A DNA stretch of 38,640 bases from a virus (lineage: Duplodnaviria; Heunggongvirae; Uroviricota; Caudoviricetes). Every line of letters begins with the position of its first letter. Within the stretch, counting starts at the first letter, position 1. A program made the position numbers and the translations under genes. The notes beneath the pieces are model-generated. The model saw only the letters and a list, made by a program, of their open reading frames with translations. It made no database searches and was not told the DNA's origin. Shown here in pieces: positions 7,527-38,640 of this stretch. The stretch lies in the IMG/VR virus record IMGVR_UViG_2671180892_000010; one strand, given 5' to 3'.

Positions 7527-8176
7527 TTGTCGGTGTACCTCTCTCGTTTGCTCAGTTGTTCAGGAATATGGTGCAGCAGCTCGCCGTCACCACAGTAAAT
7601 GGCGGCATGATTCGGCACCGATGAACCAAAACAGCACAGCAGCACATCGCCCGGCTGCGCCGCTGACAACGGCACCTGATACAGCCCTGTGGCCTCCAGA
7701 TTATCCAGATAGAGATTCTGACCGTTACGCCACCAGTCATCCTCGCGATGAAAATCCGGCATCTCAATCCCCGCCAGATGGTAAGCATCCCGGAACAGCG
7801 TGTAACAGTCCGTCACCCCGTGCTCAAAGCGCCGCCCGGAAAGATGTGGCACACAGCGGAACTTGTGAATCGCCCCCCGGCAAACCAGCCACCACGGCAA
7901 ATCACTCTGCACCTGCAGCCGCCGGTCGGTCTCACTCAGCCAGGGCAGACCACCGGGGTGGCTGTGGACCAGCGCCACAATCTCACCCTGCATCTCTGCC
8001 CGCAGCCAGTCCTCCGGCGACATCCGGAAATACTCCTCCGGCTCACCGGAGATATTCACGCAGGGAAAATATCTTTCCCCCTCCGGTGTTCTCACCACGA
8101 AGCCGCACGACTCCGCTGGCGCACATCGCCGGGCGTGCGCCAGAATCGCTGATTCTGTCTCTGTCATGGGATTCAC
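7424..8176 (-). CDS. K: tail assembly protein K (NlpC/P60 and JAB/MPN-like)
   Basis: MNPMTETESAILAHARRCAPAESCGFVV...; start overlaps the L stop (ATGA); 3' end overlaps the start of I as in lambda. Confidence 0.85.
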   Translation of the reverse strand: MNPMTETESAILAHARRCAPAESCGFVVRTPEGERYFPCVNISGEPEEYFRMSPEDWLRAEMQGEIVALVHSHPGGLPWLSETDRRLQVQSDLPWWLVCRGAIHKFRCVPHLSGRRFEHGVTDCYTLFRDAYHLAGIEMPDFHREDDWWRNGQNLYLDNLEATGLYQVPLSAAQPGDVLLCCFGSSVPNHAAIYCGDGELLHHIPEQLSKRERYTDKWQRRTHSLWRHRAWHASAFTGIYNDLAAASTFE

Positions 8177-23069: not shown

Positions 23070-23563
23070 TGTTGCCCCCACAAACAGACTTCACGCTCAA
23101 TCTCACGACGAGTCATCAGGCCTTTCCATTGCTTACCGCCAGCGTATATCCAGCGACGTAGCTGGTCACATGCGCCTTTGATATCGCCCTGGTTTATTTT
23201 GCGAAGAAGCGTCGATGTTCTGAAATTGCCAGCACCCACGTTGTAGACGAACGAGTAAAGAGCGCCGCGCGTTGTTTCCGGTATATCGACTTTGATGTAC
23301 GGGTTAATTTGTCTGGCAACCGTGGCAAGGTCTTTATTCAGGAGGGCTTTGCATTCTGCTTCGGTATACGTTTTACCGAGCATGATGTCTTTTCCGGTGT
23401 GTCCGTGACATACAGTCCATACGCCAACGATATCTTTGTATGGTATGTAGCTGACACCTTCCAGGCCATCGTCACCACTTGGGCCAGTGATTAACACTGA
23501 TGCTATAGCAATTGCTCCGCCACCAATAGCAGCAGCAACTGCTTTTCGTAATGATGGAGGCAT
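23066..23563 (-). CDS. SAR (signal-arrest-release) endolysin, lysozyme family
   Basis: N-terminal Gly/Ala-rich weakly hydrophobic segment [20 protein letters not shown], then a lysozyme E/D/T catalytic region; phage 21 R-like. Confidence 0.85.
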
Positions 23564-23778
23564 TATTCACCTCTCGCAGCCTTGCGCTTATCTTCTTTAA
23601 TCTTGAAATAAAGGTTTGTCAGGTACGTCAGCAGGCCAAATACCAGGCTACCCAGCACACCTATTGCTGCCCACTGTGAGGGCGTGACTTTATCGAGCAG
23701 CTGTAAAAACCAGTAACCGGCACTACCTGCTGAGGTGCCATAGGCGACACCCGTTGTTAACTTATCCATGGATTTCAT
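23563..23778 (-). CDS. pinholin (S21-like) with dual-start motif
   Basis: [71 protein letters not shown], close to phage 21 S; M-K-S-M dual start; GAGGTGGGG RBS. Confidence 0.85.
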
Positions 23779-23815
23779 AACCCCACCTCGCAGATGCGGG
23801 TGCTGTGTAATGGAA

Positions 23816-23839
23816 ATAAAAAGGCCACCTGACGTGGCC
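23816..23839 (-). terminator. intrinsic terminator between the methyltransferase and the holin
   Basis: Minus-strand GGCCAC-GTCAG-GTGGCC followed by TTTTTATTT. Confidence 0.55.
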
Positions 23840-23845
23840 ACCAAA

Positions 23846-24898
23846 TTATTTCCCCACCAGCTCGTTTATCTCTTTCACTGTCTGGTTAAACCGCTCTGAC
23901 TCAAGCTCAACACCTAAGGCCCGACGCCCCAGCGCCATTGCTGCTTTTATTGTGGAACCGGATCCCATAAAAAAATCAGCAACCAGATCACCAGGTCGAC
24001 TACTGGCATTGATTATTTGCCTGAGCATATCCGCCGGTTTCTCACACGGATGTTTACCCGGGTAGAACTGAACGGGTTTATGCATCCAGACATCGGTATA
24101 AGGCACGGAGACTGATACGGAGAAATAGCGCCGGAGAGATTTAAACTCATCCAGCAATTCAGAATATTTGCGATTCAGTGAATCATAAGATGCCACCAGC
24201 TGGTGGTGTGGTTGTTCCAGTTGTTGTTCCTGAAACTTCTCTGCCGCTATACGGGAAAACAGTGCCTGTAACTTCCGATAGTCAGCCTCATTCGGCAACT
24301 GCCACTGACTGGCACCAAACCAGTGGGAAACCATATTTTTCTTACCTGTGGCTTCGGCAATTTGTTTTGCCGTTATACCCAGTTCGGCACGAGCATCCCT
24401 GAAATACGAAATCAGCGGTGCCATTATGTGCTGTTTGAGTTCCCTTTCTTTTGCCGCATAGCCGTCACTTTTGCCGCGATATGGCCCCTGGTAATGTTCA
24501 GCAAACAGAACGCGCTCTGTGGCTGGAAAATATGCACGCAGACTTTCTTTATTACACCCATTCCAACGTCCGGACGGCTTCGCCCAGATGATATGGTTAA
24601 GCACGTTGAAACGTTCACGCATCATGATCTCAATATCAGATGCCAGGCGATGCCCACAGAACAGGTAAAGGCTTCCGGCAGGTTTTAACACCCGCCAGAA
24701 CTGGGCCAGACAGTGGTCCAGCCACTTAAGGTAATCTTCGTCCCCTTTCCACTGATTGTCCCAGCCGTTGGGTTTCACCTTGAAGTACGGCGGATCGGTA
24801 ACAATCAGGTCAATGGAATCATCAGGCAGGGACTGAATAAAATGCAGGCAATCAGCGTTGATTAAATCAACACTGTTTATTTTTACAGTATTTTTCAT
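23846..24898 (-). CDS. orphan DNA methyltransferase, beta class (N6-adenine or N4-cytosine)
   Basis: 350 aa; catalytic motif IV DPPY (IVTDPPYF) near the N-terminus and SAM-binding motif I (FMGSGST) near the C-terminus; no restriction enzyme partner nearby. Confidence 0.85.
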
Positions 24899-25048
24899 GG
24901 ATCAGTAAGCGTAACTCTGGTAGGCTCACTCTGCTTTTGCGCTAAAGCAGTGGGCCGTGGTTCGCTTGTGACCAGTAAGCATGAGCGAATGGCTGGCAGG
25001 TGCTACCAACACCCACCAGCCGCCCATTTTCACAGCAGGAAACCGCCA

Positions 25049-25276
25049 TTACTGGCAGCGTCTGAATTTATTCCCGTACCCGCCGTTATCCTTCGCCAGA
25101 CCCGCCAGAACTAACTGAGTCAGTATTAACTGGCACCGGGCTTCGCTTACTCCGGTAGTTCTCGTCATCATGCGTGGCGTTACCCACTTGTCAGCAGGTA
25201 AGAAATGAAGGACTGCGGCGGCGGTTTCTGTCATATCTTGCTGTTTTAGCATGTCTTTTTCCCTTCTGGTTAACAT
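25049..25276 (-). CDS. hypothetical small protein (possible winged helix)
   Basis: 75 aa ORF; the internal ATG at 25252 has the better RBS (AAGGGA); lies between the lipoprotein moron and the methyltransferase. Confidence 0.4.
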   Translation of the reverse strand: MLTRREKDMLKQQDMTETAAAVLHFLPADKWVTPRMMTRTTGVSEARCQLILTQLVLAGLAKDNGGYGNKFRRCQ

Positions 25277-25373
25277 GACATACCAATAACTCTTGTCTAA
25301 AAAGCCAGCAAGATAAAAAGTCAGTATTCACGACCACCAGCGTGTTTACTGTACTGCACCAAGTTTACGGGTA

Positions 25374-25399
25374 CAAAAAACCCGCTCAGTGGCGGGTTG
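25374..25399 (-). terminator. intrinsic terminator downstream of the lipoprotein gene
   Basis: AAAAAACCCGC-tcagtg-GCGGGTT; the minus-strand transcript gets hairpin plus U-run. Confidence 0.7.
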
Positions 25400-25475
25400 C
25401 TATCACAGCTATATATTTACTTATTATGCCGTTACTAACATTTATCTTCGACATATAATCGAAAACAAGGTTTGC

Positions 25476-25901
25476 TTAAAACTCTGCTTTCATTTTATCC
25501 GGGAATTTTTTATTTGCAGCATAATAACTACCAAGTACATAAGCGTTCATTTGCTGCTCTACATCAACCCGACATGCCGCACTAGAACAAGCTCCACTGA
25601 TAAGCCCAAAAGAACTCCCTTTAGCAGAGAGATCAGCTTTGATTTCCTCTACAGTGTTTTTCCCCATAGCAACTACACACCCTGTCACAATATATCTAGC
25701 TTTCACATCATCCATGCTAAGGATAGTAGTTTTCGCAATTTTGCTGTATCCATCATTTTTATAAACATCCATGGCAAACGCACGGCAATCTGTATAATAC
25801 GGACTTGCTTTAACTTGCGAATACTCAGGTAATTTCATACCTGCACAACCAACTAAACAAAAACCTATCGCTGCTATTAATACCTTTTTCATTACAGTCA
25901 T
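25476..25901 (-). CDS. lipoprotein of unknown function (late-operon moron)
   Basis: MTVMKKVLIAAIGFCLVGCAG...: signal peptide with lipobox LVGC; the gene and its flanks are visibly AT-rich compared with the neighbouring phage genes. Confidence 0.7.
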   Translation of the reverse strand: MTVMKKVLIAAIGFCLVGCAGMKLPEYSQVKASPYYTDCRAFAMDVYKNDGYSKIAKTTILSMDDVKARYIVTGCVVAMGKNTVEEIKADLSAKGSSFGLISGACSSAACRVDVEQQMNAYVLGSYYAANKKFPDKMKAEF

Positions 25902-26050
25902 AACCTAGAAGCATCATTGAAACTAATTTATTAAATAACCATCGAGTTTCTGGAATACAGACGTTAACCATCTCTCCAAAATCTAAAAGATAATAAGAAA
26001 AAATGTTTAACGCACCAATCCATTTCATAGTTTCATGAGACATCAGGCAC

Positions 26051-26078
26051 AAAAAAACCCGCTCAGCGGCGGGTTTTT
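26051..26078 (-). terminator. tR'-like terminator downstream of the Q-dependent late promoter (bidirectional hairpin)
   Basis: AAAAAAACCCGC-tcagcg-GCGGGTTTTT, nearly identical to the hairpin at 25374..25399. Confidence 0.7.
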
Positions 26079-26121
26079 GACATTTACCAACGGTAGACAT
26101 ACAAGGCCCATCGTTGAGAAA

Positions 26122-26150
26122 ATCTTATCCATATTTTTTGAAAAATGCAA
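26122..26150 (-). promoter_or_regulatory. candidate late promoter PR'
   Basis: Minus-strand TTGCAT, 17-nt spacer, TAAGAT, about 35 nt after the Q stop and about 45 nt before the tR'-like hairpin. Confidence 0.35.
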
Positions 26151-26181
26151 GTATCACGTCGACATCTTCGGCGAAAATTAT

Positions 26182-26934
26182 CTATCTTGTCACTTTTCTC
26201 AATTGCGATTCAGCATACGCTTCTTCCTGCCAGCACTTTGTAACCAGTTTATTAATAACGTCTGCATATCCTTTGTACCACTGATAATCCGTCAGGTCCG
26301 GTACCAGTTTCTGGACATGATGCCGCGCCAGTGTGGTTGGTAAACGGCTAAACCGGTTGCCATTGCAACGCCCACAAATCTTATAAACAGGCACACCATG
26401 AAGCTGGGTTCTTTTTTCATCCAGGACAATACCTTTACCCTTACACCCTCTGCACGCTGTGCTGACTTCTCCCTTACCATGGCAATGCTGACATAGTTCC
26501 TTCACCCACTCTTCCTTGATAACAGATTCCCCGCTTCTGGAGTGTTTCACCACTTCGCGCAATACATTATGAAATCCAGTACCAGCACAATGCTCACAGC
26601 GAGCCTTACTTGCCGCAGACCTGGAATAATCAGCAAAGGCAAAATTCACAAGGTAAGGGATGATCTGTAACCGGGTTTCTTCACTCAATTTGTTCAATGT
26701 CGGGTTATCCAGTGCCATCGCGTAATTGAGCAGACCTTCAATCGCAAATTGAGGATCCTGAACACCAACTTTTGCCAGGAATAAGGCAAACCCAAGCGGT
26801 GCTTTCGACTGCACCATCCCCTGCGCAGCCATCACATCCGTAATCGTTAAACCACCTGAGCCTGTCGCCGGTGCGTCATCGCTCAATTTTGGAGATTTTG
26901 GGGAGTAATATTTTGGTAAGGCTTCAAGGTTCAT
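26182..26934 (-). CDS. Q: late antitermination protein Q
   Basis: MNLEALPKYYSPKSPKL... with Cys-rich zinc-binding motifs (CEHCAGTG, CQHCHGKG, CRGCKGKG, CGRCNG); sits immediately upstream of the late promoter/terminator pair. Confidence 0.8.
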   Translation of the reverse strand: MNLEALPKYYSPKSPKLSDDAPATGSGGLTITDVMAAQGMVQSKAPLGFALFLAKVGVQDPQFAIEGLLNYAMALDNPTLNKLSEETRLQIIPYLVNFAFADYSRSAASKARCEHCAGTGFHNVLREVVKHSRSGESVIKEEWVKELCQHCHGKGEVSTACRGCKGKGIVLDEKRTQLHGVPVYKICGRCNGNRFSRLPTTLARHHVQKLVPDLTDYQWYKGYADVINKLVTKCWQEEAYAESQLRKVTR

Positions 26935-26947
26935 GCTCGTTCTCCAC

Positions 26948-27943
26948 TTACGCCAGTACGCCAATTGCCAGCGCACGATCGATAAAACGAAATATCAGCT
27001 CCAGCTGGGAGCCATACTTCTCTTCAAATGCCACGGTATCCGCATGCAGCTCGTCGTGATGCTTTCTGCACAAAGGCAACACAAAGAGGTCATGCGCTTT
27101 TGTACCCATTCCACCCTGACCGTGGCCTATCAGGTGGTGGGGATCATCAGCAGGCTTTCCACAACATGCACACGGCTGTGTCTTAACCCAGCGCGTGTAC
27201 TTTTCATTAACCCAGCGGCGGCGTTTTGGGCGTAACATAAAAGACTCCGGCGACTCCGGATCCACTTTCAGCGCCAGCACCTTTTTTGCCTTATCCTGGA
27301 TGATGCTGGTGGCAGGAACCGAAGGCACAAGGTCACTTTCCCGGGTGACAGACGGCACAACAGGCTTTGGTAATCTCAGTGCCTTACGGGCTGCACTTTC
27401 CGGTAAGGCATCCGCCAGGTCATTACGAATCAGCCACCAGCACAGTTCCGGCATTGTCACAACGTGACTATCATCAAAACCGAGATCCCGACGCACAACA
27501 GACAACACCCAGCGGGCACAGTTATCCGTTGCCATTGATTCCAGCCGTTCCGTGAACTGATCGCGCAGCTGGTTATCGCAGTGCCAGCACAGACGGATTG
27601 CGCCCGGAGCGTGTCGCATTGTGGTCATGTTCTCGCTGTGCCAGTCGGAATGAGGCCACTGGCAGCCTTTTTCACGACGTAACCAGCTTTCAAGACATTC
27701 CACGCCACCAGCACGACGGATCACTGCCTCATTGCGGAACACGGCCCGAACGGCAGGATCATCCGCCAGCGGTTGTGATGCCGCCGGAACGGCACCACTG
27801 GCGAAAGATGAATAACGTTCCGGCTCAGGCTCCAGCAGAACACGCCCCTGCATAAACAGGGGCATCAGCTCTGAACCTGGCCTGAACAATACGATCCCCA
27901 TACGCGGGGCAATTTCAGGGGTCAGTAGTGCTCTCACGGTCAC
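26948..27943 (-). CDS. DUF968-type protein with HNH-like zinc finger
   Basis: 331 aa; C-terminal ...QPCACCGKPADDPHHLIGHGQGGMGTKAHDLFVLPLCRKHHDELH... Confidence 0.65.
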   Translation of the reverse strand: MTVRALLTPEIAPRMGIVLFRPGSELMPLFMQGRVLLEPEPERYSSFASGAVPAASQPLADDPAVRAVFRNEAVIRRAGGVECLESWLRREKGCQWPHSDWHSENMTTMRHAPGAIRLCWHCDNQLRDQFTERLESMATDNCARWVLSVVRRDLGFDDSHVVTMPELCWWLIRNDLADALPESAARKALRLPKPVVPSVTRESDLVPSVPATSIIQDKAKKVLALKVDPESPESFMLRPKRRRWVNEKYTRWVKTQPCACCGKPADDPHHLIGHGQGGMGTKAHDLFVLPLCRKHHDELHADTVAFEEKYGSQLELIFRFIDRALAIGVLA

Positions 27944-27944
27944 C

Positions 27945-28754
27945 TCAATGAACGGTATCGAGCAGCTTTAACAGCTCAGGGAATCGGGATTCGAAGAAAT
28001 GCGGCTGCGTCTCGCGCGGATTTGCAGGACTGGTGATGTTCTTGCCGAACATGCAGCCTTTCGCCGTCAGCGACCAGAATTTTTTGATGTTGTTAATCGC
28101 GGTACGGCTGTATCGTTCGCGTTGTTCAACGATCCCCAGCTTCACCATCTGGTGATATGCCTGATTAGCCGTCAGGCGGATACCATACTGCTTCAGCAGT
28201 GCACTCAGCGACAGCGTGGGGCGACTTGAGCCATCAGGCGCGTCAGCAGGAGCATCAATGGCATAGCGCGGTGCCAGATTCGGTAAGCCAACAGCCTCCT
28301 GAAGCTTCTGACAGGCTCCAAGCACTGATGAGTTAGACAGATTTAATTCCCGGCGCATAAAGTCCAGCAGGATCACGCCAGCCTGCATCTTGTCAGCAGC
28401 CTGTCCGGATAATTTTTCCGGTGCGCTGGTTACCATGTCGAAAGTACGGATCACCTTCAGATGGAATGACGGGCTGATCCACATTGCATAGGCATACACC
28501 AGTTCTTTGCAGACATACGTCCCCTGGTTATTTCCGCCATTAATGACGCTAACTGGTTGATTTTGTTCCAGAGGCGGAATTCCACCCTCGGTGAAAAGTT
28601 GTTCAATCAATTCACAGGTTTGCTTATTGGAGAGCCAGTATTTCGGGCGGTTTTTTTGTTCTCCCCCGGCTGCCCTGTGCAGATCGTTCAGGCTGTAACG
28701 CCCATAAGCATCACGACGAACTTCAATACCATCAATGACCATCAGATTATTCAT
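27945..28754 (-). CDS. KilA-N domain protein
   Basis: MNNLMVIDGIEVRRDAYGRYSLNDLHRAAGGEQKNRPKYWLSNKQTCELIEQL..., typical KilA-N N-terminus. Confidence 0.7.
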   Translation of the reverse strand: MNNLMVIDGIEVRRDAYGRYSLNDLHRAAGGEQKNRPKYWLSNKQTCELIEQLFTEGGIPPLEQNQPVSVINGGNNQGTYVCKELVYAYAMWISPSFHLKVIRTFDMVTSAPEKLSGQAADKMQAGVILLDFMRRELNLSNSSVLGACQKLQEAVGLPNLAPRYAIDAPADAPDGSSRPTLSLSALLKQYGIRLTANQAYHQMVKLGIVEQRERYSRTAINNIKKFWSLTAKGCMFGKNITSPANPRETQPHFFESRFPELLKLLDTVH

Positions 28755-28773
28755 ACTTCGTTTCTCCTCTTGA

Positions 28774-29163
28774 TCAGGCGGCTGCACCCGCCGGTTTCTC
28801 ATACTTACTGATAGTGATCTCGACCTTCCCTTTCTGGATAACCGGTCCCCACTCCACCAGCATTCTTTTCACCTGGCTGTCGTCTTCCCACACCCCCGCG
28901 TGGGTCAGGGCGTCAAACAGCGCCTTGTTATAGTTGTCCAGATCGCGGATCCGGTTATCCGGAGGAAACAACACGATCTCCACTGAAGCAGGTGCCGACG
29001 TTGGTTTTGGCAGACGACGTAACTGCTCAACTATTGCTGCGCACGCCGCGCTCTGGAATTTGCGCCCCGCCGCGCTTATCAGGCTTTTACCAGCAAACGC
29101 CCCTTTATTAGGGTGTCGCCAGTACGTATTCACGCTGGGCGGGAAAGGTAGGATCAGTTTCAT
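28774..29163 (-). CDS. rusA: Holliday junction resolvase RusA
   Basis: 129 aa, MKLILPFPPSVNTYWRHPNKG... ...DLDNYNKALFDALTHAGVWEDDSQV..., RusA family. Confidence 0.88.
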   Translation of the reverse strand: MKLILPFPPSVNTYWRHPNKGAFAGKSLISAAGRKFQSAACAAIVEQLRRLPKPTSAPASVEIVLFPPDNRIRDLDNYNKALFDALTHAGVWEDDSQVKRMLVEWGPVIQKGKVEITISKYEKPAGAAA

Positions 29164-29486
29164 ACTTTCAGGCCTCTCTCATGTAACCAGTGGGTTGCAC
29201 GCAGCCTGGCGTTTTCCTCACCGGCAAGCAGTGAGCGGATAATCCCGACCGCCTCGCTGTCGTCGTCCTTCACCGCGGTATGAAGCGTTATCCCCCGGGC
29301 CACGCCACGCTTTATCGTGATGACGCCTTTTTTCTCCAGTGCGCGAAGATGCTCCACCGCTGCATTCACTGAACGGTATCCCAGCATGGTTGCCACCTCC
29401 TGATTGGTTGGCGGGAAGCCACGTTCTTTCTGGTAAGAAATCAGCATATCCAGCACCTGCTGCTGGCATTGAGTTAACGTCGTCAT
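29160..29486 (-). CDS. LexA N-terminal DNA-binding-domain protein lacking the S24 peptidase domain
   Basis: MTTLTQCQQQVLDMLISYQKERGFPPTNQEVATMLGYRSVNAAVEHLRALEKKGVITIKRGVARGITL aligns with E. coli LexA residues 1-70; the remaining ~40 aa carry no Ser/Lys peptidase motifs. Confidence 0.6.
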   Translation of the reverse strand: MTTLTQCQQQVLDMLISYQKERGFPPTNQEVATMLGYRSVNAAVEHLRALEKKGVITIKRGVARGITLHTAVKDDDSEAVGIIRSLLAGEENARLRATHWLHERGLKV

Positions 29487-30136
29487 GCCGCCATCTCCCT
29501 GACCAGTTTTTCCGCCTGCTGGCGAACCTGCACCAGAAAGGCTTCACCACATGCCTCAAGTTCATCGCGCCCGATGTAGCTGATTGCCGGTCCCTTCCAG
29601 GTCTTGTCGAAAACAGCAATAGCACCAGCGAAGAAAGCGCCTGTCGGCACCTGCTTCTCATCCTTCGGGATAAACCAGGCAGGCAGTTCAAAACCAATAC
29701 GCCCGCGAATAAAAGCAATATGGTCCGCATCTTCCGGCCACCACACTTCGCTGGTGGCAGCTTTGATCAGGAAAACATAGCGCCCGCCCTTATCACGCAT
29801 GGCACTGGCATGTTTCATGATGTAACGCATGCCGGTGATGTATTGCCCCTCATGCTGACTGGCGCGGCTGTATGGGGGATTACCAAAGGCAGCACCTTTA
29901 AGCTCCGCAAGACGTTCTGACCAGTCATGCGCCAGCGCGTTATCTTCCGCCGTGTAATACGCGGCACATTTGGCGTTATCACCGTCAGTAAACAGATCCA
30001 GAACAAACGGGCCAAACAGGGTGTTAATTCCCCAGAAAATGTTGTCCGGCGTGCGCCACTGATCGCCCACTTCCTTCAGTTCATGGGCTGGTTTGTTCCG
30101 CAGTTCCACCAGCGCCTGGCAATATTTATTACTCAT
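29483..30136 (-). CDS. phage Dam-type N6-adenine DNA methyltransferase
   Basis: NPPY catalytic motif (AFGNPPYS); start MSNKYCQALVELRNKPAHELKEVGDQWRTPD... Confidence 0.8.
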   Translation of the reverse strand: MSNKYCQALVELRNKPAHELKEVGDQWRTPDNIFWGINTLFGPFVLDLFTDGDNAKCAAYYTAEDNALAHDWSERLAELKGAAFGNPPYSRASQHEGQYITGMRYIMKHASAMRDKGGRYVFLIKAATSEVWWPEDADHIAFIRGRIGFELPAWFIPKDEKQVPTGAFFAGAIAVFDKTWKGPAISYIGRDELEACGEAFLVQVRQQAEKLVREMAA

Positions 30137-30630
30137 TAAGCCCCCACGTAATTCCCTGACAGATACCACTCTTCACCCGATGCAGCGCGCTTGCTGCTTT
30201 TCCGTAAGCACCGCTCACGACGCGCCAGAAAATTGTTTCGTTCTGGCTGGGAGTGGCTTTCACGGAATGCCGCCATCCACACGGTTGCAGCACGACGGTA
30301 TAAGCCCCTGAACTCCAGTTCTTCAGCCTGGCGGGTCAGGCACAAAATCACCCGTGGATCGTTAGTGCCGACATAGAAATTGCGCACAGGTCTGGTTTCT
30401 CGAACTGGTTGTGGTTCCGGTTCCTGCGCTCTCTCAGTCAGGCGCGGGAAATGTCTGCGTGTATCTCCTTCACAACGGTGAGCCACACGCCCACTCTGAC
30501 GTAACTTGCTTGCTGACTGCAGAACGCGCTGCCGTGAGTAACCTGCAAAAGCATCCGCAATGTCTCCGGAAGTACACCCCGGATGGGCTTCAATGAATTT
30601 CTGAACTTCATTCAAAAGACTCATGATCAC
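30136..30630 (-). CDS. PerC-family putative transcriptional regulator
   Basis: C-terminal ...AEELEFRGLYRRAATVWMAAF... resembles the PerC signature; 164 aa, the same size as K-12 YfdN as far as recalled. Confidence 0.45.
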   Translation of the reverse strand: MIMSLLNEVQKFIEAHPGCTSGDIADAFAGYSRQRVLQSASKLRQSGRVAHRCEGDTRRHFPRLTERAQEPEPQPVRETRPVRNFYVGTNDPRVILCLTRQAEELEFRGLYRRAATVWMAAFRESHSQPERNNFLARRERCLRKSSKRAASGEEWYLSGNYVGA

Positions 30631-31457
30631 CCCCTGAATCCTGCCGGGATCTGGCTGTAGTCCACGTTGTCGTAACTGGCTTTGAAGTACGGGTCCTCGC
30701 GTCTGGCTGCAGATACCGCAGGAACTTCCCAGGATTCTTCGAAATGACGATCCGGACCAAAGAACGTGACAGCCTGTTTCACAAATTGTGTGCCGCTGTT
30801 ACCCATCGCAGATACCCAGCCCGCGTAGCGTTTCACACCTTCCAGCATGGTTTCGGGTTTTACCCCCTCATTCAAACGAGCTTTCCAGGCTTTGAAGGCT
30901 GCAGATTTTGAATTGCCACCAGCACGTTTGGGGTATGCCAGCCATGCCTGCTCAAACTCCGGAGAGTATTCCGGTCGGTTTGAACGAACTCGCACGGACT
31001 CATCAGCAGATGCACCAACAGCTATTGGTTCATTGACTGGTTCTTTGACTGGTTCTTTGACTGGTTCAAAAGAGTGACTGGTTCTGGGTGAATCTCCTGC
31101 ACCACCCCCTGGTGCAACTCCTGCACTACCTGGTGAATTTGCTGCACCAGATAGTGAATTATTTGCACTACCCCCTAGTGAATCTCCTGCACCATCAAGA
31201 TGAAGGAGATAGATATTACTTGAGTTACCTTTTTCACCTTTCCGGGTGACTTTTTTTACCAGCCCGGAATCACAAAGGGCCGCAATATGATTCATCACAG
31301 AACGTTTGCTAATCTCGCACTGGTCAGCAATATGCTGGTAGCTGGGCCAGCACTCGCCCTGATCGCTGGCATTATCAGCCAGCTTGATCAGAACCAGTTT
31401 TCGCAATGGATTACCCACTCGAATTTTCATCGCTTTAACCATCAGCTCCATACTCAT
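30627..31457 (-). CDS. putative replication initiation protein (N-terminal winged helix, low-complexity linker, C-terminal domain)
   Basis: N-terminal ...LRKLVLIKLADNASDQGECWPSYQHIADQCEISKRSVMNHIAALCDSGLVKKV... helix-turn-helix; iteron-like DNA repeats lie inside the gene. Confidence 0.6.
   Translation of the reverse strand: MSMELMVKAMKIRVGNPLRKLVLIKLADNASDQGECWPSYQHIADQCEISKRSVMNHIAALCDSGLVKKVTRKGEKGNSSNIYLLHLDGAGDSLGGSANNSLSGAANSPGSAGVAPGGGAGDSPRTSHSFEPVKEPVKEPVNEPIAVGASADESVRVRSNRPEYSPEFEQAWLAYPKRAGGNSKSAAFKAWKARLNEGVKPETMLEGVKRYAGWVSAMGNSGTQFVKQAVTFFGPDRHFEESWEVPAVSAARREDPYFKASYDNVDYSQIPAGFRG
31030..31200. repeat. iteron-like tandem repeats inside the replication gene (candidate ori)
   Basis: Four 12-bp units (TTGACTGGTTC) from 31033 to 31084, then five ~21-bp units (GTGAAT...TGCAC...) to 31196, followed by an AT-rich stretch to about 31260. 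Confidence 0.5.
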
Positions 31458-31690
31458 GCTGCACCTCCGAGATGCTTCATGTTTTTTCCGGAGCGAAAGG
31501 CTATAAGCGGCATACTGACGCGGTAATTACGGCCCAGCGGTTCACAAATCACCTTCTGACATTCACGGTCAACCAGGCTGACACGTAGAACATGCCCTGC
31601 TGGCGTGGTGTACCACTGCCCAACTGTGGGTGTTGATATTTTTTTACGCTGAAATAAACGGTAAATGTTGAGGAGCAACGGATTAAGCAT
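31454..31690 (-). CDS. hypothetical protein, 78 aa
   Basis: ORF with start and stop overlapping both neighbours; no recognisable motifs. Confidence 0.4.
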   Translation of the reverse strand: MLNPLLLNIYRLFQRKKISTPTVGQWYTTPAGHVLRVSLVDRECQKVICEPLGRNYRVSMPLIAFRSGKNMKHLGGAA

Positions 31691-32519
31691 GACGATGCCC
31701 TCCGCTGATATTCAGGAGACGGTGAATATGAAAATTAGCCTTATCCGCCAGACGAATACGTTCAGCTTGCAAGTTAAGAAGGGTTTCTACCAGAACCTGA
31801 TGTGCCTGCGGATCCGAAAGAGTTACCTTGCGCAGAGCACGTAGTGCAGTTGTTACATAACTGAGTTTATGTAAGTCTTCATCATTCAGACGAGTGAGGG
31901 CTGGGACAGTAGCCATGATGGCAGCCTCCTTGATCGGTGAAATACTTCCACCACCGGAAACGCCAATTTCGCTGGTGGTGAACTGAACGGGGTTGGCGTA
32001 ACCGGTGATCAAGGAAACCGGCGCATCTTTCGATGCCCCCGCCCAGCCCACCATAACTTTGATGTGAGCAAATGCGGACGATAAAAAAGACGCTGGCGCG
32101 TCATATATCGCCTTGATCAATTCCAGGACGCCAATCCCGGCACCCGCTTTATAAGGTGCCTGAACAGTGTAACGTCCCGGAATGGCAGAATCAATGTGCT
32201 GGTGGTCCTTCACACTCAACAAAATCACGCCTGAATTTCCACAAAGGACTAAAGCACTCATGCGGGTAGTCTTTGCGAAGATAGATAACGCGCTGTGTTT
32301 CTGGCTCCCAACGAATAACATGAACATAAAGTCCTCTTCCGTCACGAAACCAGCGGTTAAGTTCCTGCACAACTCGCCCCCCACAGTCAGGTAAAGTTCT
32401 CTGTGGTTACTTACAGCCAGGTGATTTGGTAATCTGCATTCATGCCGTAACAACAGGTGTTCAGCGACGCTGACCACCAGCTGTTGCGACAAACGGTTAT
32501 TTGCCGTTAAACTGTTCAT
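31683..32519 (-). CDS. hypothetical protein, 278 aa, unknown function
   Basis: ATGA overlap with the upstream gene; Gly-rich segments (VLCGNSGVILLS, GAGIGVLELI, GVSGGGSIS) but no Walker A motif or other recognised catalytic motif. Confidence 0.5.
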   Translation of the reverse strand: MNSLTANNRLSQQLVVSVAEHLLLRHECRLPNHLAVSNHRELYLTVGGELCRNLTAGFVTEEDFMFMLFVGSQKHSALSIFAKTTRMSALVLCGNSGVILLSVKDHQHIDSAIPGRYTVQAPYKAGAGIGVLELIKAIYDAPASFLSSAFAHIKVMVGWAGASKDAPVSLITGYANPVQFTTSEIGVSGGGSISPIKEAAIMATVPALTRLNDEDLHKLSYVTTALRALRKVTLSDPQAHQVLVETLLNLQAERIRLADKANFHIHRLLNISGGHRHA

Positions 32520-33079
32520 GCGTTAGTTTCTCCACAGACACAAAACGCCACGACGCCCGGAGCTGCACACTCGCGGGCGTCACTCTTTTCTGGAGCGCAA
32601 AAGATTTTGTAGACCAGTGCTGCATGCTCCTGGAGCTTCGAAATTGACAGATACAACTCATCATTAATTGCTGTCTGCTCGTGTGGCTCCACTACCCCAT
32701 CTTCGATTGCCGAACGAATCTGCTTTGAGTAACTCCCGATCTGTTCGATGACTTCCAGCAGGCGCTGGTTTATATCGGCGTTCTCTACTTCCTCAATTTC
32801 AGGAAGCGATACAAACACCCCACCAGCAGACTGTGCGACAGCATCCGCAATGTAGTGAGTGCCAGCCGCGCGCTGTAAAATCATTGCCCATCCCAGCGGG
32901 AAAATCTGATCGCCATCTGCACGAAGGCGGTTGAATAAAGCGTTCTCTGTTACATCCAGCCACTCAGCAGCTTCAGCGTAACCCCCCGGCAACGCCGCGA
33001 TAGTTTTTCTGACAGCTTTCACGTACCACTCAGGCTGTTTTTCTACTTTCCAGTGATGCTTACCCACGGTTAGCCTCAT
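32516..33079 (-). CDS. hypothetical protein, 187 aa, in the cII slot (possible YdaT-like regulator)
   Basis: First gene after cro; assigned by position only, sequence not confidently matched to any family. Confidence 0.45.
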   Translation of the reverse strand: MRLTVGKHHWKVEKQPEWYVKAVRKTIAALPGGYAEAAEWLDVTENALFNRLRADGDQIFPLGWAMILQRAAGTHYIADAVAQSAGGVFVSLPEIEEVENADINQRLLEVIEQIGSYSKQIRSAIEDGVVEPHEQTAINDELYLSISKLQEHAALVYKIFCAPEKSDARECAAPGVVAFCVCGETNA

Positions 33080-33110
33080 CGTTCTGTGGTTAAAAATTGA
33101 AGGTGTTCTG

Positions 33111-33311
33111 TTAATCTTTCGGATAGATATCCGGTCTTAAGTCAGATTTCGTAATTGCACCTGACGTGCATTGCTCAAGTTTTTTAGCCAGCACAAAACT
33201 GGCTTTTTTATAACCATTGAAAACCAGCCGTAAGTAGCCTGGTGTTGAGCCAACTTTTCCGGCCAACTCGCCCTGCTGTTCTTTGGTTAAAGAGTCCCAA
33301 TACGCTTTCAT
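33111..33311 (-). CDS. cro: Cro-like repressor (YdaS/Cro family helix-turn-helix)
   Basis: MKAYWDSLTKEQQGELAGKVGSTPGYLRLVFNGYKKASFVLAKKLEQCTSGAITKSDL...; ATG at 33311 with a GGAGGT RBS; divergent from cI. The longer track ORF to 33614 overlaps the operators and the cI start. Confidence 0.7.
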   Translation of the reverse strand: MKAYWDSLTKEQQGELAGKVGSTPGYLRLVFNGYKKASFVLAKKLEQCTSGAITKSDLRPDIYPKD

Positions 33312-33401
33312 ACAATATGTACCTCCGGTATACATATTACATGATTGAGATGAACCTTCAAGATACTTGTACCTTATCGGTACAAAGGTTTTAATTTCTT
33401 T
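33312..33401. promoter_or_regulatory. cI-cro intergenic control region (candidate OR operators, PR and PRM)
   Basis: Inverted repeats AATATGTA-N9-TACATATT (33314..33338) and TTGTACC-N5-GGTACAA (33367..33385); minus-strand TTGAAG-N16-TAATAT candidate PR; cI ATG at 33402 has no Shine-Dalgarno sequence. Confidence 0.55.
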
Positions 33402-34076
33402 ATGAAAACAGTCCATGACATCCGGCGGTCTAACGCCAGAAAACTGAGAGATGGTGTTGGCGGGAATTCTTCCTTTGCCACCATGATTGATCGCGAGCCA
33501 ACCCAGACCAGCAGGTTTATGGGAGATGGTGCTACTAAAAATATCGGTGACAGCATGGCACGGCACATCGAAAAATGTTTCGACCTGCCTGTCGGATGGC
33601 TTGATCAAGAACACCAGACAACAAACATCACAAAAAAACCTGATGTTTCAATTACTAACAAACAAATAACGTTAGTCCCTGTCATATCATGGGTACAGGC
33701 CGGAGCATGGAAAGAAGTTGGCTATTCTGAGGTTGATTTGAGCACAGCAGAAACTTATCCCTGCCCTGTACCCTGTGGCGAAATGACTTATATCTTGCGG
33801 GTGATTGGTGATTCAATGATTGATGAGTACCGCCCGGGAGACATGATTTTTGTAGATCCTGAAGTCCCTGCCTGCCACGGTGACGACGTTATTGCATTGA
33901 TGCACGATACAGGCGAAACCACCTTTAAGCGGTTGATAGAAGATGGAACACAGCGTTACCTCAAAGCATTAAACCCAAACTGGCCTGAACCTTACATTAA
34001 GATCAACGGTAATTGCTCTATAATTGGCACAGTAATTTTCTCAGGAAAACCAAGAAGATACAAAATAAAGGCCTAA
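33402..34076 (+). CDS. cI: CI-like prophage repressor (helix-turn-helix plus S24 LexA-like peptidase domain)
   Basis: 224 aa; C-terminal ...LRVIGDSMIDEYRPGDMIFVDPEVP... autocleavage domain; divergent from cro. Confidence 0.88.
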   Translation: MKTVHDIRRSNARKLRDGVGGNSSFATMIDREPTQTSRFMGDGATKNIGDSMARHIEKCFDLPVGWLDQEHQTTNITKKPDVSITNKQITLVPVISWVQAGAWKEVGYSEVDLSTAETYPCPVPCGEMTYILRVIGDSMIDEYRPGDMIFVDPEVPACHGDDVIALMHDTGETTFKRLIEDGTQRYLKALNPNWPEPYIKINGNCSIIGTVIFSGKPRRYKIKA

Positions 34077-34087
34077 TCAATATTTAT

Positions 34088-34110
34088 AACCTGCTTCGGC
34101 AGGTTTTTTT
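34088..34110 (+). terminator. intrinsic terminator after cI
   Basis: AACCTGC-TTCG-GCAGGTT followed by TTTTTTT (UUCG tetraloop). Confidence 0.85.
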
Positions 34111-34114
34111 ATAC

Positions 34115-34147
34115 TTGACAATGTACCCTTGAGATACATAATGTATC
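34115..34147 (+). promoter_or_regulatory. PL-like promoter with overlapping palindromic operator
   Basis: TTGACA (34115..34120), 16-nt spacer, CATAAT (34137..34142); perfect 15-bp palindrome GATACATAATGTATC (34133..34147) overlaps the -10. Confidence 0.6.
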
Positions 34148-34577
34148 TAAAAGAAACATGTCACAGGCAAGATTAAACAAAATTTGGTTGTAACACGGCG
34201 TATGGCACATGCGTCGTTAGCGGTCTGGGGACGTTAAAGGGGACAATCCACTCCTTGCTCGGGCAAACAAACCAGGTAGCCGGAATGTGCAAGTCAATGA
34301 TGATGCTGATAAGACGCCTAACCAGCGTGGCGATCCGGTTTGACGCCTGGGAAGAGACCAGGGTGCAACGATGAGGGCATTTATGGAGCCGCGACAAAGT
34401 GTGGTGCCGTAACTGGCTAAGTGCTCTCAGCGTTGTGGTGAATGCGCAGGCTGATGCGCGAAAGACATTGCAGCTAATGCGGAAAAGAGCTGTTCGGCGG
34501 GGCAATTAAACGCCCGAGAGAGTCTGAAATAACCGCAAGCCGGAGATCAGCACCGGTCACCACAACAGCCACTGCTT

Positions 34578-37303: not shown

Positions 37304-37510
37304 ATGCTGAACCTCGATTGTGTTCCTATCTCAACTTATTGCAAAGAAACTGGCGAAACTCCTGAAGCAATAAACAAACGTGTACAGCGCGGTGTTTGGC
37401 GTGAAGGTGTTCAGGTTTTAAAGGTTGAAGGCGTTAAGGAGAGGTGGATTGATCTTAGTGAGGTTGCAAAATGGGCCAGACAAAACTGCTCAAACTACCG
37501 CGCGGCGTAA
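37304..37510 (+). CDS. xis: excisionase (Xis/AlpA-like winged helix)
   Basis: MLNLDCVPISTYCKETGETPEAINKRVQRGVWREGVQVLKVEGVKERWIDLSEVAKWA...; immediately upstream of and overlapping int. Confidence 0.65.
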   Translation: MLNLDCVPISTYCKETGETPEAINKRVQRGVWREGVQVLKVEGVKERWIDLSEVAKWARQNCSNYRAA

Positions 37511-38640
37511 CAATCAGAAAACACCGTCAGGGAGAAACGATCAATATAACTTTCACCTACAAAGGAGTTAAATGTCGTGAGCCACTTTCCAATCTGGAAG
37601 TAACACCAAAGAACATTAAATACGCCGAGCGTACACTCGGCGAAATTCATAATAAGATCGAAAGGGGAACATTCATTTATGCGGAATATTTTCCCCGTTC
37701 TGCTCGTTTGAAAATTTTTGGTAATGCTGCTGCAGGCAAAACGGTAAAAATGTACCTGGACGAATACCTTGAAATCTGCGAAACGAGAAAACTTTCACCA
37801 TCTACGATTGGTGGTTATAAAAAATGCCGTAGTGCGTTAGCCTCACTCCACATTTGCCCTGCAAGTGAATTAACACCAGCAATCCTGAAAGCGTGGATTC
37901 AAAGCCAGAAAACGACCTTAAAAACAATTCGCAACCAGTTATCTTTCCTGCGGTCAGCACTTGATGAAGCCGTAACCGATGGGGTACTTCAAATTAACCC
38001 CGTATCGTTGGTAACTGCTTCGCGCTACCAAAGTGATAAGTCAGAAGCAGAAAGCAGCTACGTGGTTGATCCGCTATCACCAGCAGAAGTTGATGCATTA
38101 CTAGCAGCAGCCGGAAACAAACAATGGGAGAATCTGTTCCGGTTCGCTATACATACAGGCCTGCGTAGTTCTGAATTATGTGCCCTTCGATGGCGTGATA
38201 TCGACTTTGTTGGAAAAACTGCCCATGTCCAGAGCGCAAGTGTTGTCGGTGTTATCAAAGGAACAAAGACAAAAGCCGGTACTCGTAAAGTCGAACTGAC
38301 AGAAGATGCAATGTTGGCGCTGATAAATCAGAAGCCATTTACATTCATGAAGGATGCTACAGTCTTTGAAGATCCAAAGACCAATAAGCCTTGGGCAAGT
38401 GCTGATGCAATTAGAAAAAAAGCATGGGTGCCAACATTGCGAAAAGCAGGTATTCGTTACAGAAACCCATATCAAACCAGACATACATTCGCCACCAGCC
38501 ATATCAGCCGGGGAGCAAACCTGTTTTGGCTTGCGGTTCAAATGGGTCATAAAGGACCAGAGATGTTATTTAGACATTATGGCTCATACCTCAAAGAATA
38601 TGATGGAAATACATCTTTAAATAGAAAAAATAGATATTAG
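37471..38640 (+). CDS. int: tyrosine site-specific integrase
   Basis: 389 aa; catalytic region ...HTGLRSSELCALRWRDID... ...TRHTFATSHISRGANLFWLAVQMGHKGPEMLFRHYGSY; stop codon is the last triplet of the window. Confidence 0.9.
   Translation: MGQTKLLKLPRGVTIRKHRQGETINITFTYKGVKCREPLSNLEVTPKNIKYAERTLGEIHNKIERGTFIYAEYFPRSARLKIFGNAAAGKTVKMYLDEYLEICETRKLSPSTIGGYKKCRSALASLHICPASELTPAILKAWIQSQKTTLKTIRNQLSFLRSALDEAVTDGVLQINPVSLVTASRYQSDKSEAESSYVVDPLSPAEVDALLAAAGNKQWENLFRFAIHTGLRSSELCALRWRDIDFVGKTAHVQSASVVGVIKGTKTKAGTRKVELTEDAMLALINQKPFTFMKDATVFEDPKTNKPWASADAIRKKAWVPTLRKAGIRYRNPYQTRHTFATSHISRGANLFWLAVQMGHKGPEMLFRHYGSYLKEYDGNTSLNRKNRY

Follow-up and report, generated by a model that had tools for sequence, protein, structure and literature searches.

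A LexA-Type DNA-Binding Domain without Autopeptidase Encoded in the Early Operon of a Lambdoid Prophage

The LexA-Like Gene and Its Product

The virus record IMGVR_UViG_2671180892_000010 of IMG/VR (Caudoviricetes) comprises 38,640 nucleotides and represents a lambdoid prophage, with the integrase encoded at positions 37471-38640; this whole stretch of DNA is referred to as the window. The early-right operon on its minus strand includes a gene for a LexA-like protein of 108 amino acids, which contains the DNA-binding domain (DBD) of LexA and is devoid of the S24 autopeptidase domain. An initial annotation, made from the nucleotide sequence alone, had placed this open reading frame (ORF) exactly, and the peptide quoted there corresponds to residues 8-58 as read from the minus strand. 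The gene and the predicted parts of its product, with confidence given as the predicted local distance difference test score (pLDDT), are the following.

29160..29486, minus strand: LexA-like gene, 108 amino acids plus stop codon, ATG start; full-length member of PHROG 362 and of the RefSeq 'LexA family transcriptional regulator'
29280..29486, minus strand: winged helix-turn-helix (wHTH), residues 1-69, with helices 6-22, 28-35, and 40-52 and strands 56-58 and 66-68, according to Pfam, AlphaFold2, and Foldseek
29331..29369, minus strand: recognition helix, residues 40-52, VNAAVEHLRALEK; the ungapped alignment with LexA shows S39, N41, A42, and E45 retained, with Val in place of E44
29265..29279, minus strand: acidic flexible linker, residues 70-74, the sole segment with a pLDDT below 50
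29163..29264, minus strand: helical hairpin, residues 75-108, with helices 75-87 and 93-103 and the turn LAGEEN, taking the place of the S24 domain; AlphaFold2 block with pLDDT 87-88

Residues 1-65 match the Pfam profile LexA_DNA_bind (PF01726) over its entire length (positions 1-65 of 65), with an expectation value (E) of 2.9e-19 and a score of 69 bits at a cutoff of 23.7. In a phmmer search of the PDB sequences, residues 2-69 are aligned with residues 2-69 of Escherichia coli LexA (E 7e-16) without a gap and with identity at 34 of the 68 positions (50%), which bears out the earlier claim that the first ~70 residues are LexA-like. Structure prediction, which had been named as a check, leads to the same fold. 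The AlphaFold2 model, calculated with 18 family members as input, has a mean pLDDT of 80 and is superposed by Foldseek on the LexA N-terminal domain structures 1lea and 3jso with a root-mean-square deviation of 1.0-1.2 Å over 66-68 residues. Outside the PHROG 362 family, the nearest relatives are Gram-negative-type LexAs.

The absence of the peptidase, as claimed for the 108-amino acid product, was likewise found. No match to Peptidase_S24 was obtained in the Pfam search, the protein ends at residue 108, and the gene of the Holliday-junction resolvase RusA begins at the stop codon. The NCBIfam equivalog model for lexA, TIGR00498, is matched with 70.8 bits, which is under its cutoff of 110.95, and only over model positions 1-91 of 203. 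The LexA-like protein is thus not LexA proper, as it fails with regard to both the S24 domain and the whole-protein equivalog score; it is confirmed to be a genuine LexA DBD without autopeptidase. Due to the absence of the S24 domain, RecA-stimulated self-cleavage cannot remove it.

Integrity, Prevalence, and Family of the Gene

The LexA-like gene is linked to both of its operon neighbours by ATGA overlaps, located at 29483-29486 with the stop codon of the Dam gene and at 29160-29163 with the start codon of the RusA gene.

29483..30169, minus strand: Dam-type N6-adenine methyltransferase (phage), upstream operon neighbour; its stop codon overlaps the LexA-like start codon
28774..29163, minus strand: RusA Holliday-junction resolvase, downstream operon neighbour; its start codon overlaps the LexA-like stop codon

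Because of the overlap with RusA at the stop codon, no space is left downstream for an S24 domain hidden by a frameshift. Residues 1-108 match the profile of PHROG 362 ('transcriptional repressor') from end to end (positions 1-106 of 106, E 1.1e-59). The length of 106-108 amino acids is constant in homologues from Escherichia, Salmonella, Citrobacter, and Hafnia, and relatives at 44-52% identity are of the same length and possess the same tail. In comparisons with Salmonella, Citrobacter, and E. coli homologues according to Nei-Gojobori, the ratio of nonsynonymous to synonymous substitution rates (dN/dS) is ~0.11-0.14 overall, with 0.02-0.10 for the wHTH and 0.08-0.27 for the tail, so that, judged from these ratios, both parts are under purifying selection.

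Of 5,426 complete E. coli genomes, 2,233 (~41%) carry the gene, with up to 4 copies per genome and at 95-100% identity. A frameshift, which the initial annotation had considered, would have left a dead gene, that is, a functionless remnant of what was once a complete lexA or cI-type gene, broken by decay or frameshift. The missing C-terminal domain is the sole point in favour of such a remnant; the ATGA-coupled ends, the full-length PHROG 362 match, the length kept across genera and down to 44% identity, a dN/dS of ~0.1, and the prevalence among E. coli genomes rule it out, and its probability is negligible.

As an entity, a LexA DBD without peptidase is already known and is found in the databases under that name, the annotations being based on homology. 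Identical or near-identical proteins are annotated in the phages SKA5, Kati, mEp460, SfV, SfII, SfIV, cdtI, 1720a-02, Stx2c, and Stx2a_WGPS2 as 'LexA-like protein', 'LexA DNA binding domain protein', or 'transcriptional repressor', and RefSeq entry WP_053918604 is designated 'LexA family transcriptional regulator'. The PHROG 362/WP_053918604 protein of SfV, SfII, SfIV, mEp460, cdtI, Stx2c, and Stx2a_WGPS2 is the same protein as that of the window (95-100% identity), with no difference between them, and the neighbours are shared as well, with Dam or PerC located upstream and RusA downstream. A full-text literature search revealed no functional or experimental study of the enterobacterial PHROG 362 family. 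A fold search of BFVD returned only stand-alone LexA-DBD phage proteins, none of them characterised; such proteins are common in unrelated phages.

Proteins with tandem LexA DBDs and no S24 domain were also encountered in the representative search (P0132, P0133, P0149, P0152, P0153, P0156, and others; 141-350 amino acids). Going by their sequences, they would amount to a built-in 'dimer' of LexA wHTH domains.

Prophage Context

The order of genes in the early-right operon on the minus strand is cro/cII-like genes, Ash-family gene, replication initiator, PerC, Dam, LexA-like, RusA, KilA-N, DUF968/HNH, and Q.

33402..34076, plus strand: S24-type repressor (ymfK-like, with Peptidase_S24 domain), the prophage's own repressor
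30627-31457, minus strand: replication initiator (HTH_36)
30136-30630, minus strand: PerC-family protein
27945-28802, minus strand: KilA-N protein, in the conserved downstream block 26182..28802
26948-27943, minus strand: DUF968/HNH protein, in the same block
26182-26976, minus strand: Q antiterminator, in the same block, followed by the lysis and structural genes

With its own S24 repressor, the phage already possesses a RecA-cleavable switch. The stretch from the replication gene to the LexA-like gene contains no strong minus-strand terminator, from which it would follow that the latter is a delayed-early gene, the product being made once the prophage is induced or a cell is infected, but not in the quiescent lysogen.

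In related loci, the core block of LexA DBD, RusA, KilA-N or Rha/ANT, DUF968, and Q is retained in every instance fetched except L006, which has no KilA-N/ANT gene and in which an opposite-strand ORF is located between the LexA-like gene and that of RusA. Variable components are the upstream neighbour (Dam, PerC, C5 methylase, or replication gene), the type of immunity repressor, the Q family, and the lysis cassette. RusA is the next same-strand gene in every related locus examined, including those from Escherichia, Salmonella, Citrobacter, and metagenomes. This constant adjacency could point to a nontranscriptional accessory function of the protein in DNA handling within the replication and recombination module, together with RusA or the replication initiator, for instance in marking or bending DNA. 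In line with that are a weak similarity to PHROG 678 'replication initiation O-like' (E 0.0085) and to Pfam DnaD_N (E 0.15) as well as the existence of fusions of the replication-protein HTH_36 domain to the LexA-like protein (P0001). However, both similarities are far weaker than the LexA match, the base-contact residues of LexA are conserved beyond the fold alone, the fusions look like deletion products, and adjacency in nin-type regions often reflects inheritance of a module rather than function. A role in DNA handling is thus regarded as quite improbable.

Several further elements were observed in the early and immunity regions. Within the Ash-family gene, two Rfam matches above the gathering score lie side by side on the minus strand, namely a C4 antisense RNA at 31971-32058 (82 bits) and isrK, an Hfq-binding RNA, at 32083-32159 (64 bits); this pair resembles a c4-ant-like immunity element of the P1/P7 type inside a lambdoid prophage. 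The S24 repressor gene is flanked by immunity-region operators at 33316-33385 and 34121-34159, which consist of TGTACC-N5-GGTACA palindromes, such as TTGTACCTTATCGGTACAA at 33367-33385, and are unrelated to the SOS box.

Linker and C-Terminal Hairpin

Downstream of the flexible linker, the C-terminal domain of LexA is replaced by the helical hairpin. Within this hairpin, L86, L87, A93, R96, A97, L101, E103, and R104 show no variation among 18 homologues, at least 90% of which also have I82 and W100. The motif is still recognisable in distant relatives down to 44% identity (P0124, P0126, P0129, P0130, P0138, P0162, and P0168). A two-helix hairpin with a conserved hydrophobic face is too small for a stable domain of its own, which points to a putative dimerisation module in place of the LexA C-terminal domain.

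In the phmmer alignment, LLAGEE (residues 86-91) at the hairpin turn is paired with the LexA cleavage site VAAGEP, so that A88-G89 is opposite A84-G85 of LexA. The stretch SLLAGE (residues 84-89, at 29220-29237 of the window) covers the hairpin turn opposite LexA Ala84-Gly85. Conceivably, the segment could act as a cleavage-site decoy that occupies the S24 active site of LexA, UmuD, or the phage repressor, either as a trans-substrate or as a competitive inhibitor, and the match to TIGR00498 does extend to model position 91. Yet some close homologues have N or K in place of G89, distant family members lack the AG pair, and AlphaFold2 places LLAGEE at a helix end and turn, as opposed to the extended conformation expected of an S24 substrate; a decoy function is very improbable. 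Since the glycine varies in close homologues and the pair is missing in distant ones, the segment is probably a leftover from an ancestral, full-length lexA gene and not a working cleavage site.

SOS Boxes in the Window and in Related Loci

Candidate LexA sites were scored with a position-specific scoring matrix based on a set of 20 E. coli LexA sites, and 100 shuffles served as control. The search for LexA boxes within the prophage, likewise named as a check in the initial annotation, yielded a single strong canonical box for the entire window.

24871-24890, minus strand: SOS box TACTGTAAAAATAAACAGTG, located in codons 3-9 of the methylase gene
23846-24898, minus strand: N6_N4 DNA methylase, 350 amino acids, just upstream of the lysis genes

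The box scores 22.8 bits, which is inside the range of the training sites, the best of the 100 shuffles reaching 18.8 bits. It is a candidate site for the host LexA and, possibly, for the LexA-like protein. Its position and consensus are kept in homologues with 64-82% amino acid identity from phages of Citrobacter, Klebsiella, Morganella, and Providencia. Of the 60 unique IMG/VR sequences printed, 59 likewise preserve the position and the CTGT...CAG consensus, via synonymous and conservative changes. From this conservation, the methylase looks to be LexA-controlled, independently of the LexA-like gene.

The methylase gene is preceded by a noncoding leader of ~130 nucleotides (~24899-25040, minus strand), which extends between an ORF of 67 amino acids (25050-25253) and the methylase ATG. 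With 150 instances in IMG/VR, 69 of them unique, this leader is more conserved than the adjacent coding sequence. For 16 representatives, RNAalifold predicts two hairpin domains (-38.6 kcal/mol) with four compensatory pairs and several G-U/G-C switches, and no Rfam family is matched. The leader is possibly an uncatalogued cis-regulatory RNA or a prophage small RNA.

Co-occurrence of gene and box was surveyed in 80 DUF968-anchored IMG/VR loci (L016-L095), using a threshold of at least 17 bits. The LexA-like gene is present in 70 of the 80, and 43 of these 70 have a box in the fetched flanks; in the other 10 loci, several of which are truncated contigs, the gene is apparently missing. With so few gene-negative loci, several of them truncated, no valid statistic for co-occurrence of gene and SOS box can be obtained. 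Near the gene in distant relatives, no SOS box of at least 12 bits was found in L002-L004 and L006, and in L011 and L012 the near-gene match amounts to 14 bits only.

Other relatives contain strong boxes at different places. In locus L015, the box TACTGTATTTATGAACAGT(A/G) is situated at 7748-7767 in a gap of 150 nucleotides between the RusA and KilA-N genes, and it is also found at offset 9067 in L027, L061, L063, and L067. The box at L015:7748, ~430 nucleotides downstream of the LexA-like gene, has a promoter-like layout, TTGAAT-16-TACTGT, and the KilA-N (antirepressor-like) gene of those relatives appears, from this arrangement, to have a LexA-controlled promoter of its own. In the window, the RusA and KilA-N genes overlap and there is no box between them. 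Perfect SOS boxes of 25-27 bits are located 228 nucleotides into cI-like genes of the HTH_3 plus Peptidase_S24 type (L005:836-855 and L013:1739-1758). These cI-internal boxes, with the sequences TACTGTTTTTATATACAGTA, TACTGTTTTTACATACAGTA, and TACTGTTTATAAATACAGTA, recur in 21 of the 80 surveyed loci; the window's own repressor is of a different type and does not include such a box. A second exact CTGT-N8-ACAG core, CTGTAAGTAACCACAG, is present in the window within the Ash-family ORF (32401-32416, minus strand); it scores below 8 bits and is probably due to chance.

A private operator for the LexA-like protein was looked for in 23500-34300 by searching for inverted repeats at most 30 nucleotides apart and for perfect 5-mer palindromes with spacers of 2-12 nucleotides, and none was found; the palindrome search returned immunity operators, terminators, and the SOS box only. 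The variants CTAT, CTCT, and CTTT followed by N8 gave no match in the early region.

DNA Target and Proposed Role

According to the residue list quoted in PMC3091678, LexA contacts its DNA through S39, N41, A42, E44, and E45, and it is on this quoted list that the contact role of Glu44 rests. Four of these five residues (S39, N41, A42, and E45) are retained in the ungapped alignment. Arg64 in the wing strand is common to LexA and the PHROG 362 family. Across 85 close homologues from several genera of enterobacteria, the recognition helix RSVNAAVEHLR does not vary, and such invariance amid mosaic phage modules argues for a target that is located outside the variable modules and is constant across hosts. 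The N-terminal fragment of LexA is reported to bind SOS boxes and to repress on its own, so that full SOS induction requires its degradation by ClpXP (PMC10584840). The architecture of the phage protein, with LexA wHTH, flexible linker, and conserved hairpin, fits a constitutive operator binder. A further point in favour of SOS boxes as the target is their recurrence, as strong sites, in this phage group (24871-24890 of the window, L015:7748, L005:836, and L013:1739). A noncleavable binder of SOS boxes or operators, as had been proposed from the sequence, would accordingly be plausible but unproven.

In the scenario tentatively favoured here, for which the chances are put at somewhat below even, the protein would be a RecA-insensitive, tail-dimerised operator binder of the LexA type, which is made in lytic development and re-occupies SOS-type operators after LexA has been cleaved. 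It would be expressed from the delayed-early (pR) operon, alongside the genes for replication, Dam, RusA, KilA-N, and Q. Having no S24 domain, it could not be inactivated by RecA*. With the hairpin tail as dimerisation module in place of the LexA C-terminal domain, the dimer would bind to a palindromic SOS-type operator, CTGT-N8-ACAG or a close variant. Its most likely role would then be the renewed repression of LexA-controlled promoters after lytic development has begun. This would affect host SOS genes as well as SOS-boxed accessory genes of such prophages, that is, the methylase in the window and the KilA-N promoter and cI-internal site in relatives. DNA damage would thereby elicit a pulse of expression instead of sustained derepression, and the SOS response would be dampened in the induced or infected cell. 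The initial annotation had suggested that such a binder uncouples its targets from RecA-mediated derepression. That notion holds insofar as the protein is a real LexA DBD without autopeptidase, and it needs correction as to timing, the gene belonging to a lytic operon; going by the gene order, an uncoupling from RecA would take effect only following induction or infection, with the quiescent lysogen unaffected.

Several observations weigh against this scenario. Glu44 is replaced by Val in the window, and in the recognisable short hairpin-tailed relatives the position is occupied by V, A, F, T, or L, never by Glu, while 11 of the 13 S24-bearing LexAs from the same search have Glu there. The helix also differs by subfamily (AAVE, AATD, GAFE, AAFE, AAAE, and AVLL), which would be unexpected if all members read the invariant host SOS box and is more reminiscent of a diversifying operator specificity. 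The only characterised truncated phage LexA, gp6 of GIL01, has altered specificity and an altered regulatory sign, as it binds its own palindrome, GaCACAn nTGTGaC, and activates the late promoter P3 (PMC6182141). Furthermore, the methylase box is equally conserved in phiNP, a Citrobacter phage, and in phages of Morganella and Providencia, for all of which tblastn shows no LexA-like gene, and 27 of the 70 gene-positive IMG/VR loci have no SOS box of at least 17 bits in the fetched flanks.

The main rival explanation builds on these points. It envisages a phage-specific regulator akin to gp6, in which the captured host LexA fold has been re-tuned, through Glu44 to Val and other changes, to a phage palindrome and represses or activates a phage promoter with no direct effect on host SOS boxes. 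The family-wide replacement of Glu44, the diversification of the helices among subfamilies, the GIL01 precedent, the stand-alone LexA-DBD proteins in unrelated phages, and the many gene-positive loci without a nearby SOS box are all in its favour. Conversely, no candidate operator emerged from the inverted-repeat and palindrome searches of 23500-34300, the LexA-like gene does not have a promoter region of its own, the helix of the close family is invariant despite mosaic neighbouring modules, and late expression is already provided by Q in these phages. A re-tuned operator specificity is, on this balance, considered somewhat unlikely.

The re-occupation of SOS-type operators may be extended to a farther-reaching version, according to which a phage-made, RecA-proof LexA surrogate shuts the SOS regulon down again during lytic growth, so that SOS-boxed phage genes (methylase, KilA-N, and the cI-internal site) would pulse only briefly and, within the same cell, colicins, SOS toxins, and the LexA-controlled antirepressors of rival prophages would be blocked. 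This version is unlikely.

Relation to Known Systems

With the N-terminal domain of E. coli LexA (1lea, 3jso), the phage protein shares the wHTH fold and register, S39, N41, A42, E45, and R64, and a flexible hinge after residue 69. It differs in having Val at position 44 and a helical hairpin of 34 residues for the C-terminal domain, and it does not include the S24 peptidase and dimerisation domain with its Ser119/Lys156 dyad; the Ala-Gly cleavage site is apparently not conserved. While E. coli lexA is an autoregulated chromosomal gene, the LexA-like gene is phage-encoded and part of a lytic operon.

In LexA-based two-hybrid systems, reporters with an SOS box are repressed by LexA(1-87) fused to a zipper, and the ClpX signal of the LexA N-terminal fragment is its new C-terminal VAA. 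The phage protein differs from this cleavage fragment in being the product of a dedicated, selected gene with a tail of its own, ending in ...RGLKV. Common to both is the LexA DBD without protease, with which the fragment reportedly keeps SOS-box binding and repression (PMC10584840).

Functionally, the nearest characterised system is gp6 of GIL01, a tectivirus of Bacillus thuringiensis. Like the LexA-like protein, gp6 is an early phage product that is essentially a LexA DBD without a cleavable domain and acts alongside the host LexA (PMC6182141); it is 44% identical to the LexA of its host, as compared with 50% between the LexA-like protein and E. coli LexA, so that the two are in a range of ~44-50%. 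Unlike the latter protein, gp6 does not possess a helical-hairpin tail, and it activates the late promoter via its own palindrome, which overlaps the -35 element. GIL01 uses host LexA together with gp7 and no CI-type repressor, whereas the prophage of the window has an S24 repressor and a Q antiterminator. No sequence link to gp6 or its tectiviral homologues was obtained: tblastn of 50,697 phage records at E <= 1e-5 matched enterobacterial phages only. The absence of a Bacillus phage match suggests that the LexA-like protein was captured independently from a Gram-negative LexA, and, as far as can be judged from the sequences, gp6 and the LexA-like protein look like independent captures of a host LexA DBD.

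In a wider sense, GIL01 gp7, AriS of a Listeria phage, and the plasmid protein PsiB may be compared, being mobile-element proteins that dampen or reshape the host SOS response. However, these proteins act on LexA or RecA themselves, as co-repressor or as RecA inhibitor, and do not imitate the LexA DBD.

Implications for SOS Regulation in E. coli

To the specialist, the gene itself would be no surprise; a proven uncleavable SOS-box binder in ~41% of the genomes would matter to the fields of SOS regulation and of Shiga toxin (Stx) phages. If the protein were to read an operator of its own instead, it would be one more small nin-region regulator, mainly of interest to those working on lambdoid phages. 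If, on the other hand, binding to SOS boxes were true, many natural E. coli strains would carry 1-4 copies of an uncleavable LexA mimic that is switched on during prophage induction. SOS outputs in lysogens and polylysogens, such as antibiotic mutagenesis, release of colicins and toxins, and cross-induction of Stx and other prophages, would then have to be reinterpreted, and the system would constitute a Gram-negative counterpart, of opposite sign, to the tectiviral interplay between LexA and gp6. If it were a RecA-proof surrogate of LexA, the presence of its gene in ~41% of complete E. coli genomes, often in several copies, would make the protein a common influence, so far overlooked, on SOS output, on mutagenesis, and on the cross-induction of Stx phages.

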